A DNA stretch of 63,485 nucleotides, filler included, from Parachlamydiales bacterium (GTDB lineage Bacteria; Chlamydiota; Chlamydiia; Chlamydiales; Parachlamydiaceae): assembly GCA_020051075.1 (NCBI GenBank). It is 4 parts of 4 records of this genome, joined end to end, with 100 filler letters (N's around TTAATTAATTAA, not from the genome) between each part and the next. Parts side by side here need not be neighbours in the genome. Positions count along the whole stretch, not along the records: positions 1 to 16,676 come from JAGVJP010000037.1; 3 more parts are not named here. One strand, 5' to 3'. Both the position numbers and the translations under genes were made by a program. A model generated the notes under the pieces. It ran no database searches. It was not told the origin of the DNA and worked only from the letters and a program-made list of their open reading frames with translations. Below are positions 5,734-63,483 of the stretch, piece after piece (position 1 is the first letter of the stretch; the number at the start of each line of letters is the position of its first letter).

Positions 5734-5818
5734 TTTATTAAACGCAAAGACACAGAGACGCAAAGAAGCGAATGAGGAATTCGCCCCTTTGCGTCTCTGT
5801 GTCTTTGCGTTTAATAAA
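5734..5818. repeat. family B palindromic repeat (AACGCAAAGACACAGAGACGCAAAG...reverse complement)
   Basis: About 32-bp perfect inverted arms. Related copies at 25504-25600 and 36877-36925. Confidence 0.85.
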
Positions 5819-5971
5819 AGCTATAGAAAATGCTGCATATACATACGATAATTTCAGCGGTTTTGCGATTAATAAAGCTAATGCGAGAGGTATACCGACA
5901 TCGAGTTGAAATTGTTAATATGGAAATTAATCGGATGCCAGTGTAGAAATAAGACAAATGAGAGGCTTTCC

Positions 5972-8446
5972 ATGAACCGCGACTTTGAGAAACCTGGCGC
6001 ATTCTATCTAGGTAAATTGGTTGATCCTTCAACAGGAAAATTGGAAGACGATTTACTCTTATACCAGTCCAAGAATCTGACAACGCATGCCGTCTGTGTT
6101 GGAATGACGGGCAGCGGAAAAACCGGATTGGGTATCGTTCTCCTCGAAGAAGCTGCTCTCAATAAAATTCCCGCGATTATCATCGATCCGAAAGGGGATC
6201 TCACCAACCTCTTTCTGACTTTTCCTAATCTGTCACCAGAAGAATTCAAACCTTGGGTTGATTTAGCTGAAGCTGAAAGGAAGGGAATGGATGTCGACCA
6301 ATATTCGGACTATATCGCCAAAACATGGAGAGATGGATTAGCCTCTTGGGGAGAAAATGCTGAAAGAATTAGAAATTTCAGAAATTCTGTCGACCTCGCC
6401 ATCTACACTCCAGCTAGCAACGCAGGAATCCCCATTTCCATTCTGAGTTCTTTCGCAGCTCCACCCAAAGAACAACTATTGGATTCAACAGCAGTCAGAG
6501 AGAGAATTCAATCTATCACATCAAGCCTCCTTGGTTTGTTAGGCATCGACGCTGATCCCATTAAGAGCCGCGAACACATCCTCATCTCTACCATTATCCT
6601 CCAAGGGTGGCAGAATGGCGTGGACCTTGATATCGCCGCTCTAATCCAACAAGTACAGAAACCCCCTTTTACTAAAATCGGTGCGTTAGACATCGACACC
6701 TTTTACCCCCAAAAAGACCGGATGGGATTGTCGATCGCATTAAATAACCTTCTAGCCTCACCTGGTTTTCAAGCTTGGATGGAAGGAGACCCCCTCGATA
6801 TTCAAGACTTCCTCTTCACAAGGGAGGGGGCTACTTTCACAATTTCGTCAGAAAAATCGGGCGAGCGATCTTCAACAGCTGCGGCTTCTCGCTCGCCCGA
6901 TTTTTCTGACGAAATTGTGAAAATAGCCCCCAAGGGAAAACCTAAGCTTTCCATCATTTCCATCGCACATCTATCGGATTCAGAGCGGATGTTTTTCGTC
7001 ACTCTTCTCCTTAATCAGATGCTAACTTGGATGCGTCGTCAATCTGGAACATCCAATTTGCGCGCATTACTGTACATGGATGAAATCTTCGGATTTTTTC
7101 CTCCAACAGCAGCGCCTCCCTCGAAATTGCCTATGTTGACATTGCTTAAACAGGCACGGGCGTTTGGCCTTGGAGTCGTCCTCGCCACACAAAACCCTGT
7201 CGATCTTGATTATAAAGGCCTAGCCAACTGCGGCACATGGTTTATTGGAAAACTTCAGACAGAAAGAGACAAAGCACGCGTCCTCGAAGGGCTTAAAACC
7301 TCTTCGATTGGCGATGTTGATGCCAGTGAACTCAACAAAATGCTCGCGTCAACTGGCAACCGGACCTTCATCATGCGTAGCATTTATGAGAAAAACCCAA
7401 TCCTTTTCCAAACACGTTGGAGCCTCTCCTACCTGCGAGGACCTTTGACGCTCACCCAGATTGCAACCTTGACAGGTAATTCAAAAGAAAAGAAAAAGGA
7501 AAAAGAGACAACGCCAGCCACACAGGAAAGGAAAGCTGTATCGAATTCTAAACCCAATGCACCTCCAGGGGTGAGTGAATTTTTTGTCCATCAAAACAAC
7601 TCTCAACTTCCTGTACATTATGAACCTAAAGTCGTTGGGATAGCAAAACTGCATTTTGTCGATGCAAAAATGAAAGTCGATACCTGGGAAGACATTGGCT
7701 ATGCGCTGCCCGCCGATAATGATGGTCAATCTGTTGACTGGACACAAGGCATAAATATTCCTGACCTGAAAAATCAAATGAAAAAAGACCCCATCCCGGG
7801 CAGCACTTTTGGAGAACTTCCCGCAGGGTTGATGCAAGAAAAAACCTATCTCATCTTCGCTAAAGAGCTCGCTGCAGTCCTCTATCAAAGTCAAACATAC
7901 ACGATCTACCAAACAACTGATCCAAACATGATCTCTGAAGCGGGAGAGTCTGAAAGAGATTTCCGTCTCCGAGTGGTGAATGAAATGCATGAAAAGCGGG
8001 AGGAGTTAGTAAAAAAGGTGCGGGAAAAATACTCTGAGAAAAGAACTGTTCTGTCAAATAAGATACAGCGTGCTCAAGAAAAAATGACACAAAAAAAGCA
8101 GAAAGCATGGTTGCAAAAGCTGCAGACGCTGATATCATTTGTATCGACATTGGTTGGGGCTCTCTTTGGCCGTCACGTGACCAAGGGGACCATATCCCAA
8201 ACAGGGACATCATTGCGGCGAGCCACTCAGATCGGCAAAGACTCCCAGGATGCAACCCAAGCTGAACAAGAAGTTGAAAATTATCAACAGCAATTACAAG
8301 ATCTTGACAATCAGATGAACGGGGAGATTTCTTCCCTTAATGCTGATGCCAATCCAGACAGCATCAAAGTGGTCACGACTTCTGTTCGGCCGCGCAAAAG
8401 TGATGTCTCTGTTGAGAAAATATCTTTAGCGTGGTGGTGGCGCTAG
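5972..8446 (+). CDS. HerA/DUF87-like P-loop ATPase with C-terminal coiled coil
   Basis: THAVCVGMTGSGKT, IIDPKGD, YMDEIFG, KQARAFGLGVVLATQNP. ATG 5972 is preferred (GAGG upstream). Confidence 0.88.
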   Translation: MNRDFEKPGAFYLGKLVDPSTGKLEDDLLLYQSKNLTTHAVCVGMTGSGKTGLGIVLLEEAALNKIPAIIIDPKGDLTNLFLTFPNLSPEEFKPWVDLAEAERKGMDVDQYSDYIAKTWRDGLASWGENAERIRNFRNSVDLAIYTPASNAGIPISILSSFAAPPKEQLLDSTAVRERIQSITSSLLGLLGIDADPIKSREHILISTIILQGWQNGVDLDIAALIQQVQKPPFTKIGALDIDTFYPQKDRMGLSIALNNLLASPGFQAWMEGDPLDIQDFLFTREGATFTISSEKSGERSSTAAASRSPDFSDEIVKIAPKGKPKLSIISIAHLSDSERMFFVTLLLNQMLTWMRRQSGTSNLRALLYMDEIFGFFPPTAAPPSKLPMLTLLKQARAFGLGVVLATQNPVDLDYKGLANCGTWFIGKLQTERDKARVLEGLKTSSIGDVDASELNKMLASTGNRTFIMRSIYEKNPILFQTRWSLSYLRGPLTLTQIATLTGNSKEKKKEKETTPATQERKAVSNSKPNAPPGVSEFFVHQNNSQLPVHYEPKVVGIAKLHFVDAKMKVDTWEDIGYALPADNDGQSVDWTQGINIPDLKNQMKKDPIPGSTFGELPAGLMQEKTYLIFAKELAAVLYQSQTYTIYQTTDPNMISEAGESERDFRLRVVNEMHEKREELVKKVREKYSEKRTVLSNKIQRAQEKMTQKKQKAWLQKLQTLISFVSTLVGALFGRHVTKGTISQTGTSLRRATQIGKDSQDATQAEQEVENYQQQLQDLDNQMNGEISSLNADANPDSIKVVTTSVRPRKSDVSVEKISLAWWWR
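6826..6931. mobile_element. 106-bp palindromic element inserted in frame in the ATPase gene (RPE/MITE-like)
   Basis: 43-bp arms with one mismatch around a 20-nt loop; GGGGG...CCCCC ends; the reading frame stays open on both strands. Confidence 0.8.
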
Positions 8447-11591: not shown

Positions 11592-11712
11592 TCATCTTAT
11601 CCTCATCATCATTCCTATCCTCCCATCCTGTAAAATTGACAGGATGGGAAGGATAAGAGGGATGATGGTGCGTTAAGATATTCGCTATCTTGCCCTATCT
11701 TGCCTATCCTAC
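11592..11712. repeat. family A palindromic repeat
   Basis: ATCCTCCCATCCTG-loop-CAGGATGGGAAGGAT with longer imperfect arms, lying between convergent genes. Confidence 0.75.
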
Positions 11713-16502: not shown

Positions 16503-16676
16503 CAAAGAGGTCATTGCAGAAGTCGAGCATGTAACTGCCTGAGCTTAGCTATCGCCGAAAACAGACTTTCATCAACTCACAGGTTCTTGTCAAAATTGAC
16601 CATAGAAAAGCGGAAGAGGACTTCCGCACTCCAAACGCTTCGCGAAGCCATATTTGTGTTTCGCGAAGCGTTTGGA
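16503..16676. repeat. family C composite palindromic repeat (CCAAACGCTTCGCG...CGCGAAGCGTTTGG), truncated by the contig end
   Basis: Aligns with 63239-63416; inner hairpin visible. Confidence 0.85.
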
Positions 16677-23285: not shown

Positions 23286-23432
23286 ATGACATCACCTCGC
23301 TGTAAAAGAGAGGTCATTGTAAGAAATTAGCTTAAATGTGCAAAGAAAAAACGTCACTATTCACGTCCCCTCCTTTTTTTAACGCAAATGAAGCGATTGT
23401 GGGTGAGGAAATGGCCGTCCTCTCACAATAGG

Positions 23433-23522: not shown

Positions 23523-23623
23523 ATAAAGAACACATTAATGTATTAACGTTCAATCTGTTACGAATTAATTAATGAATTCCCTCTTCGTCCCTTATAGATC
23601 CCTTTTAAGTGTGAAGAATAATC

Positions 23624-23672
23624 TTTCTTATCCTGTCTATCTTGCCGCGAAGCGATCCTGCCTATCCTGTTC
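23624..23672. repeat. family A half element
   Basis: ATCTTGCCGCGAAGCGATCCTGCCTATCCTG, similar to 28985-29020. Confidence 0.65.
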
Positions 23673-28773: not shown

Positions 28774-28780
28774 CTCACAA

Positions 28781-29039
28781 GATAGACAGGATAAGGGACA
28801 AAAACAGGATGAGCAGGATCGCTTCGCGGCAGGATAGGCAAGATAAAAATTGACAGGATGGGAAGGATTAGAAGGATGGGAAAGCATTTTATTTAATGGA
28901 AAGTCATTCGTTATCTTGCCTAAAATCTCATCATCATCTTTTCTATCCTTCCCATCTTGTCAATTTTTTTGTTTTTTATTTTGCCTATCCTGCCGCGAAG
29001 CGATCCTGCCCCTCCTGTTTTGTCCCTTATCTTGTCTCT
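28781..29039. repeat. ~260-bp family A inverted repeat between sctQ and pkn5
   Basis: The left arm (GACAGGATAAGGGACAAAA..GCAGGATCGCTTCGCGGCAGGATAGGCAA..TTGACAGGATGGGAAGGAT) is mirrored at 28940-29039. Confidence 0.88.
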
Positions 29040-29092
29040 CTAGTTTATCATTGACAGTTCTTGATGATTTGCTCTATTTTGTTGCTCAATAA

Positions 29093-35464: not shown

Positions 35465-35489
35465 GGGAACTTGGTAAAATGGTTCGCTG

Positions 35490-35558
35490 CAAAAGCGCAA
35501 GAGGACTTGCGCACTCCAAACGCTTCGCGGAGCCAAATTTGTGTTACGCGAAGCGTGT
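35490..35558. repeat. family C partial repeat
   Basis: AAAAGCGCAAGAGGACTTGCGCACTCCAAACGCTTCGCG...CGCGAAGCGT. Confidence 0.8.
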
Positions 35559-35608
35559 GAATCTCCCATCTTTTGACTTTTTCGCAAAGCTCTGCAAAAT
35601 AGTCGGGT

Positions 35609-39218: not shown

Positions 39219-39332
39219 TATCTTCTTCCCCATCCTGTTAAACATGTCAGAGGTGAGGTTGGCTCGAATCTGTGGGAATGACAGGATGGGAAGGATGTGT
39301 TGGAGCTGACAATATCTTTCCCATCCTGTCAC
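39219..39332. repeat. family A repeat cluster
   Basis: CCCATCCTGT / GACAGGATGGGAAG / TTCCCATCCTGTC. Confidence 0.7.
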
Positions 39333-39512
39333 TATCTTAAGAGTCAATCAGAGATGTCACCTATTGGAGAAGCATTTTGTGGTTTGTTTTGTAATTTAAA
39401 GGGTATAATGGAATATACATGCTTAAGTGTTTTTATTTCTATAACAAATTTTGTAACTTATTAGGATATGGAGTGAAACAAGTCGTCACCTAATGCTGTC
39501 GCCTGACTTTCC

Positions 39513-41293: not shown

Positions 41294-41379
41294 CTCTAGA
41301 CCGGTATCTAGTTGAAATTGCCCATCTGGACTGTGCCAAAGCTCCCGCGGTTGAACGATCGTAAATCAACCCATATTGA

Positions 41380-63238: not shown

Positions 63239-63483
63239 AAAGAGGTAATTGCAGAAGTAGAGCCCGAACCAGATCTGCGAGCCATCGCCGAAAACAGACT
63301 TTTATCAACTCACAGGTTCTTGCCAAAAATTGACCATCGAAAAGCGGAAGAAGACTTCCGCACTCCAAACGCTTCGCGTATTCAATACGATTTGTTGGAT
63401 ACGCGAAGCGTTTGGAGTGCGAAAGCCCCCTTTCGCTTTTCCGCCAAAGGATGTTGATCAGAACCTGTGCGCTTATAAAAGTT
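63239..63483. repeat. family C composite palindromic element, most complete copy
   Basis: Inner 22-bp perfect arms at 63360-63420; imperfect outer arms at 63298-63320 and 63460-63482. Confidence 0.85.

Follow-up and report, generated by a model that had tools for sequence, protein, structure and literature searches.

The locus and its palindromic element

We analyzed a stretch of 63,485 nucleotides from a Parachlamydiales genome (the window, in which runs of N separate several contigs; the source genome is G000 below), where contig C104 carries a gene for a HerA-like ATPase with a palindromic insertion. The ATPase reading frame begins with an ATG at 5972, preceded by a GAGAGG motif. The features of the locus, in window positions, are as follows.

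5972..8446, plus strand: ATPase gene, encoding an 824-aa DUF87/HerA-like P-loop ATPase with intact Walker A and Walker B
6821..6828, plus strand: target-site duplication, left copy, AGGGAGGG, equal to the empty allele; 8 bp by comparison with the family
6829..6928, no strand: MITE, 100 bp, non-autonomous, with one stop-free frame per strand
6829..6850, plus strand: left terminal inverted repeat, 22 bp, matching both ends of the DUF6399 elements L103, L092, and L104
6851..6868, plus strand: inner left arm, placed by hairpin arm scan and subfamily alignment
6869..6888, plus strand: loop, 20 nt, a remnant of the interior of a 157-bp subfamily
6889..6906, plus strand: inner right arm, a perfect complement of the left arm in this copy only; siblings differ at 6884-6901, and template switching likely rewrote it
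6907..6928, minus strand: right terminal inverted repeat, 22 bp, whose sole open frame reads DEIVKIA
6929..6936, plus strand: target-site duplication, right copy, CCCAAGGG, altered, 4/8 match

The arms of the hairpin (6826-6868 and 6889-6931) are 43 nt each and 98% complementary, with a single mismatch and a 20-nt loop, exactly as an initial sequence-only reading had described the 106-bp structure. Its folding energy is -85.9 kcal/mol (z = -12.7), and none of 200 shuffled sequences was as stable. An Rfam scan of the hairpins returned no family at the gathering score and five sub-threshold matches.

The sequence-only reading had taken the entire palindrome (6826-6931, 106 bp) to be the mobile unit, with GGGGGC ends. 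Comparison with the family corrects both points. Because units running from GGCTA to TAGCC carry 8-bp flanking repeats in the family, the element is limited to 6829-6928 (100 bp), and its ends are GGCTAY. Three of the outer G/C pairs of the hairpin are target site and lie outside the element; they form where the CCC of the right duplication meets the GGG of the left one. The duplication is likewise not the AAGGGA repeat (6820-6825 and 6932-6937) to which the initial reading had pointed while leaving the matter undecided, but the 8 bp at 6821-6828 and 6929-6936. A 106-bp element with a duplication of 2, 5, or 6 bp was rejected, since family copies show 8 bp; the 5- and 6-bp options would also give an offset of 112, which is out of frame. 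A 100-bp element and an 8-bp duplication together make 108 nt, and thus the reading frame is kept and 36 codons are gained. Read in frame +1, the element has no stop on either strand, and its two encoded peptides are identical at 25 of 33 residues.

Translation places the 36-aa peptide, in full and in frame, within an ORF that is open across 824 codons and has a DUF87/HerA domain. We aligned the protein with the best 120 proteins listed, from which the window's own protein was removed (n = 119). All 119 homologs have a 36-residue gap exactly at the place of the insert, so the segment is not one shared among orthologs, and removal of the 108 nt restores the spacing of the homologs as had been anticipated. 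The closest homolog among the matches listed is 789 aa long and 89% identical, and the filled ATPase forms a protein cluster with a single member. Of 216 columns that are at least 95% conserved among the 119 homologs, the ATPase retains 215, which is no worse than in five close homologs. The host protein shows no sign of decay. In the structure model, insert residues 286-320 lie between a helix (277-281) and a strand (324-330). The low pLDDT of this segment is not evidence of disorder, because its columns have no alignment rows. The model predicts that the insert leaves the ATPase fold intact. Most likely, the insert is a neutrally tolerated loop.

Sequencing runs provided an empty allele, in which 6824 is joined to 6933 with zero letters between and 108 nt skipped (4/4 runs, from one study). 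At this joint, four letters fit either side. In one run followed over a wider stretch, the two pieces of the empty allele show 18 differences from the window in 271 letters and 12 in 367. The empty allele thus identifies AGGGAGGG, on the left, as the original target, so that it is the right copy that was changed, to CCCAAGGG. The filled allele is supported by one assembly and was spanned by none of the public runs searched, none of which had half of the search words; no RNA run was listed among the matches. The insertion in the ATPase gene is recent, real, and in frame.

The window copy aligns as an internal deletion of the 157-bp subfamily. Its arms within the element are 40 bp, compared with 22 to 26 bp in seven relatives. 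When it is compared with a sibling present in the empty-allele runs, the differences are concentrated in the right arm, where substitutions and indels at 6879-6901 add up to a net change of 3 nt. Template switching between imperfect arms yields arm-perfecting changes of this type, according to the excerpted text of PMC5941160. The 40/43-bp arms are likely secondary products of such switching, which would have altered the right arm and part of the right duplication. A single switch does not explain letter 6932 or the retained arm mismatch (6834/6923), and therefore two or more patches, or substitutions acquired afterwards, would be required.

Other palindromic repeats occur in the window. An intergenic hairpin with 40-bp arms (5734-5818) lies upstream of the ATPase gene, has sub-threshold Rfam matches only, and is related to repeats near 23369, 25499, and 36884. 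Another family (D20) has degenerate end copies at 5891-5924, just upstream of the gene, and at 41297-41330; elsewhere in G000, a 165-bp hairpin of this family (C6:21546-21710) lies inside a 1466-codon ORF. A further palindromic family is found at 16547-16674, 35476-35559, and 63280-63455, with two copies at contig ends. Modular purine/pyrimidine-skewed palindromic repeats are located at 2805-2871, 11592-11670, 23621-23671, 28777-29044, and 39270-39335, and similar skewed modules form the interior of longer G000 MITEs with DUF6399-type ends.

The MITE family and its stop-free forms

Related copies, which the initial reading had proposed to look for, do exist. BLASTN of the hairpin against G000 recovered one close sibling (C18:15562-15654, 84% identity) together with many 22-bp matches to the arm ends. 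By motif scan, G000 contains 39 ends, made up of 9 pairs and 21 single ends (about 30 elements), and a weight-matrix scan gave 38 terminal-repeat matches of at least 20 bits, compared with none in the reversed genome. The flanking 8-bp repeat is perfect in four of the nine pairs and matches at 7/8 in one more. Across all sources, 32 of 43 paired copies, two of which repeat a site, have a duplication of 7/8 or 8/8. Only 2 of the 39 G000 terminal-repeat matches fall in a long ORF, and these are the two ends of the window copy, making it the sole genic one of about 30. Prokaryotic MITEs are about 90% intergenic in the portion of PMC11602168 that bears on this point.

These copies have the properties of a MITE. 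They are short, lack a transposase, carry 22-bp terminal inverted repeats, are dispersed, and have an empty site. The duplication is of fixed length (8 bp in the family; in the window copy the length is right and 4/8 letters agree), and the ends are held in common with autonomous elements (L103, L092, and L104), a partner of this type being absent from the search of G000. ORFs adjoining single ends in the genome loci were considered as transposases and rejected, as they are host genes.

The 93-bp sibling (C18:15562-15654; L053:1501-1593) has a perfect 8-bp duplication and lies directly upstream of a gene that we take, from a motif, to be cyclophilin-like, whose expression it could affect. In G003/G062, loci L052-L070 (about 1440-1650) combine the interior of the 157-bp subfamily with other terminal repeats, of GGCYGTGTTCACTTCTTCGGTCA type. 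Several of these MITEs have 8-bp duplications, one (L062) overlaps a 570-codon ORF, and their ends resemble those of the DUF6399 element L152. Two longer stretches are bounded by terminal repeats. One (L090:1781-4029, 2249 bp, between family terminal repeats) holds a gene for a group II intron reverse transcriptase/maturase and probably arose when an intron inserted into a MITE. The other (L072:2501 onward and L082 up to 2522) has an IS110 transposase gene between two family repeats about 2.57 kb apart and likely represents a 572-bp MITE invaded by an IS110.

One frame in each terminal repeat is free of stops. In that frame, both strands of the 100-bp and 157-bp forms are open, and with the duplication these forms are a multiple of three in length (3n), whereas the 93-, 96-, 127- to 132-, and 162-bp forms tested are not open. 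In G061, stop-free 157-bp copies were located in ORFs in 3/6 cases (3/5 distinct sites), compared with 0/15 stop-bearing copies (0/14 sites). The difference between sites is significant (Fisher P = 0.010) in a small sample in which kin copies are not independent. One of the three genic copies in G061 is in GcvT, where the insert is about 55 aa relative to PDB homologs. A LAB_N protein has a 57-aa gap in its alignment with the G000 ortholog.

A profile of the encoded peptide matched 14 proteins of at least 92 aa and 44 cluster representatives. Seven multi-stretch, low-complexity proteins among the 44 are likely spurious and were not considered further; short ORFs consisting mostly of the element make up many of the 44. 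We left five N-terminal matches that may be gene-calling artifacts (P0243, P0245, P0249, P0254, and P0271) out of the internal inserts. By position, internal inserts occur in DabA, the LAB_N protein, a RecC-like protein, TamB, a phosphatase, and a NUDIX protein; the LAB_N and DabA cases are the ones with support beyond position. Searched by tblastn against G000, the L028, L032, and L033 proteins had no insert-free homolog that could serve for comparison, and the inserts at L028 and L032 are therefore placed by ORF position and duplication only. In L017 of G003, a palindromic insertion at about 915-1015 that is unrelated to the family puts a gene, presumably of the YhcG/DUF1016 type, out of frame.

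DUF6399 elements and a predicted transposase

An exact-pattern scan of metagenomes for the ends of the MITE yielded 35 loci. Among these loci and related ones, elements bounded by MITE-type ends and encoding DUF6399 are 1.85 to 1.97 kb long. Three of them have ends as in the window MITE and perfect 8-bp duplications: L103 (1872 bp, with one 592-aa ORF), L092 (1866 bp), and L104 (1848 bp), the latter two with split ORFs. The autonomous insertion sequence that the sequence-only reading had suggested searching for was thus found in the form of DUF6399 elements with GGCTAY-type ends, but outside G000. G161, a single-contig genome of the same order, has three 1966-bp DUF6399 copies with three different perfect 8-bp duplications, and on Thiodictyon and Acaryochloris plasmids DUF6399 genes are flanked by GG ends and 8-bp duplications. 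A survey of 300 genomes of the phylum detected the family in 9. We found no DUF6399 gene in G000, G061, or 32 sampled genomes of the same family, and G003/G062 and G063 have DUF6399 fragments only, which end in the family's terminal repeat. A scripted search detected no ends at L115 (Crinalium) or at several chlamydial DUF6399 loci, some of which are too short.

In Pfam, the proteins of L103, L092, and L104 match DUF6399 and, weakly, an HTH domain; no Pfam transposase model and no NCBIfam model matches the L103 protein. Searched by sequence against the PDB, the DUF6399 profile gave weak HTH matches only. Residues D160, D215, D235, and E487 are invariant in 116/116 aligned homologs, and H238 is found in 115/116. 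D235 and H238 form a D-x2-H motif, with 19 residues between D215 and D235. An AlphaFold model (pLDDT 87.9) matched Hermes transposase best in Foldseek (E = 8e-5), followed by ISCth4 (E = 3e-3), and aligned with retroviral integrase cores with Z up to 14.8 (rmsd 2.9, 146 aligned). From the invariant residues and the model, we predict that DUF6399 acts as a DDE transposase having an RNase H fold with D, D, and E.

ISL3 and IS1595 have GG ends and an 8-bp duplication. Both were rejected as partner, since their Pfam families were not found in any of five MITE-carrying genomes; the L103 protein has neither family profile and matches only DUF6399 and HTH. In the main texts of the open literature searched, we found no paper on DUF6399 or on chlamydial in-frame MITEs; the family may already have an IS name in ISfinder, subscription papers, or supplements.

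Interpretation and comparison with known systems

We propose, with a probability of about 0.85, that a 100-bp MITE with its 8-bp duplication has added 36 in-frame codons to the ATPase gene, that the predicted DDE transposase, DUF6399, likely placed it there in trans, and that it is likely neutral. A 157-bp stop-free MITE would have lost its interior to give the 93- to 100-bp forms. The empty allele shows that one such copy reached the gene after divergence from a strain about 93 to 97% identical; it was likely moved in trans by the DUF6399 protein of an unnamed IS family with matching ends. With one stop-free frame per repeat and a length that becomes a multiple of three when 8 is added, about one-third of genic insertions would keep the frame in either orientation, and selection would remove those that break it. 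Template switching could later have perfected the right arm and overwritten part of the right duplication. The insert is predicted to be flanked by a short helix on one side and a core strand on the other, with the ATPase fold intact.

The main departure from this proposal concerns the protein. The insertion could be real while the fusion is not made or not functional, so that the gene is a very young pseudogene. A hairpin of -85.9 kcal/mol in the mRNA could block translation or destabilize the message, and decay may not show yet after a recent insertion. This seems unlikely, however, given the frame open over 824 codons, the 215 of 216 conserved columns kept, the several changes that the copy has persisted long enough to collect, and the retention in genes of stop-free copies but not stop-bearing ones. 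In addition, a guanylate kinase with an RPE insert stayed active, as reported in the consulted part of PMC2229807. We regard it as quite improbable that the insert is instead adaptive, with the hairpin or peptide regulating the ATPase operon through mRNA processing or a new surface loop. Unusually perfect arms and a frame that survived a net +3 difference from a sibling could be read in that way, but the insert is in one genome and is absent from a close strain and from 119 homologs, the hairpin has no Rfam family at the gathering score, and arm perfection is expected from template switching (PMC5941160, in the text excerpted).

Two further alternatives concern the origin of the element. A palindrome of RPE or REP type might have been moved by an unrelated enzyme (e.g., an IS1595, ISL3, or HUH transposase). 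G000 yielded no DUF6399 gene, and in G003 the same interior carries a second pair of ends; yet that second pair resembles the DUF6399 element L152, the 22-bp ends and 8-bp duplication match DUF6399 elements, and neither ISL3 nor IS1595 Pfam families were found in the five MITE-carrying genomes, which leaves little probability for another enzyme. Similarly, the perfect hairpin, or the entire insertion, would be an artifact of assembly or amplification only in a very improbable case. In favor of an artifact are the lack of a run across the filled allele, a contamination rating of 5.7% for the genome, and the imperfect duplication. Against it, only four letters at the joints are common to the gene and the element, which is too few for a graph mis-join; the added sequence is exactly as long as the element plus 8; the arm mismatch typical of the family ends has been kept; and the flanking sequence runs collinearly with the empty allele.

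Beyond the in-frame insertion at this locus, we think it reasonably probable that an RPE-like family of protein-extending MITEs is present in environmental chlamydiae and is moved by DUF6399, the DDE transposase of an undescribed, multi-phylum IS family. Its terminal repeats are readable in one frame on both strands, and for this reason stop-free 3n derivatives would have entered GcvT, DabA, a RecC-like protein, TamB, and the ATPase. If true, this would provide a testable model for the origin of RPE-type inserts, with filled and empty alleles in close strains. In a 2007 review, the movement of coding palindromes such as RPEs is unsettled, and the excerpted text gives no experimental mobilization of them (PMC2229807). 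Combined here are the element, its 8-bp footprint, an empty allele, an intact partner element, and a within-genome control in which only stop-free copies persist in genes. DUF6399 gains a predicted function, and profile-based IS finders would likely miss its elements. The weight of the finding lies in the transposase family and the clean selection filter more than in the single insert, which is probably neutral.

Among known transposases, the p-MULT/IS256 superfamily shares with modeled DUF6399 a predicted RNase H fold, a DDE triad, and an alpha-helical insertion between D2 and E. The Mutator-type C/D(2)H motif of that superfamily, 11 to 19 aa after D2 in the available section of PMC3942029, is present in DUF6399 (19), whereas the helical insert of 99 to 138 aa given there contrasts with about 270 aa from D215 to E487. 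Because this insertion is about twice the p-MULT length, DUF6399 is not filed under p-MULT/IS256, from which its N-terminal HTH also distinguishes it. The hAT transposase Hermes resembles the DUF6399 model in having a large helical insertion domain. Hermes is eukaryotic, and with 12% identity and a TM-score of about 0.26 to 0.3, the likeness is one of shared architecture only. The hAT transposases make an 8-bp target duplication.

Like the window MITE, the Correia/NEMIS, RUP, Nezha, and Chunjie MITEs are non-autonomous, have IS-type terminal repeats and a target duplication, occur as filled and empty sites, and are mostly intergenic, as described in excerpts of PMC2229807 and PMC3184786. In contrast to those MITEs, the partner IS here is labeled only DUF6399, the 8-bp duplication comes without TA ends, and one subfamily, of 3n length, is free of stops whichever way it is inserted.

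Palindromic elements of Rickettsia (RPE) are reportedly the subject of Ogata et al. 2000 and Abergel et al. 2006. In the excerpts of PMC2229807, PMC3184786, and PMC10969869, RPEs are, like the window MITE, 100- to 160-bp hairpin repeats; they have terminal inverted repeats, belong to an intracellular-type bacterium, and lie in frame inside conserved genes, adding a related peptide to unrelated proteins. In-frame insertion of this kind was found here in the window ATPase, GcvT, and the LAB_N protein. The same excerpts list the RPE target duplication as "?" and name no mobilizing enzyme, in contrast to the 8 bp and candidate transposase of the present family, and they describe RPEs as nearly half genic, compared with 1 of about 30 copies in G000. 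The hosts also differ, being Rickettsia/Rickettsiales for RPEs and Parachlamydiaceae, Parachlamydiales, and Waddliaceae for the homologs and the genomes bearing our terminal inverted repeats. The initial suggestion of an RPE-like family in a chlamydia thus holds as far as it concerns a mobile, palindromic, in-frame insertion in a chlamydia-like genome, and gives way to an IS-derived MITE that is mostly non-genic in G000. The window element works like an RPE yet is a DUF6399-type MITE, and the likeness is one of behavior.
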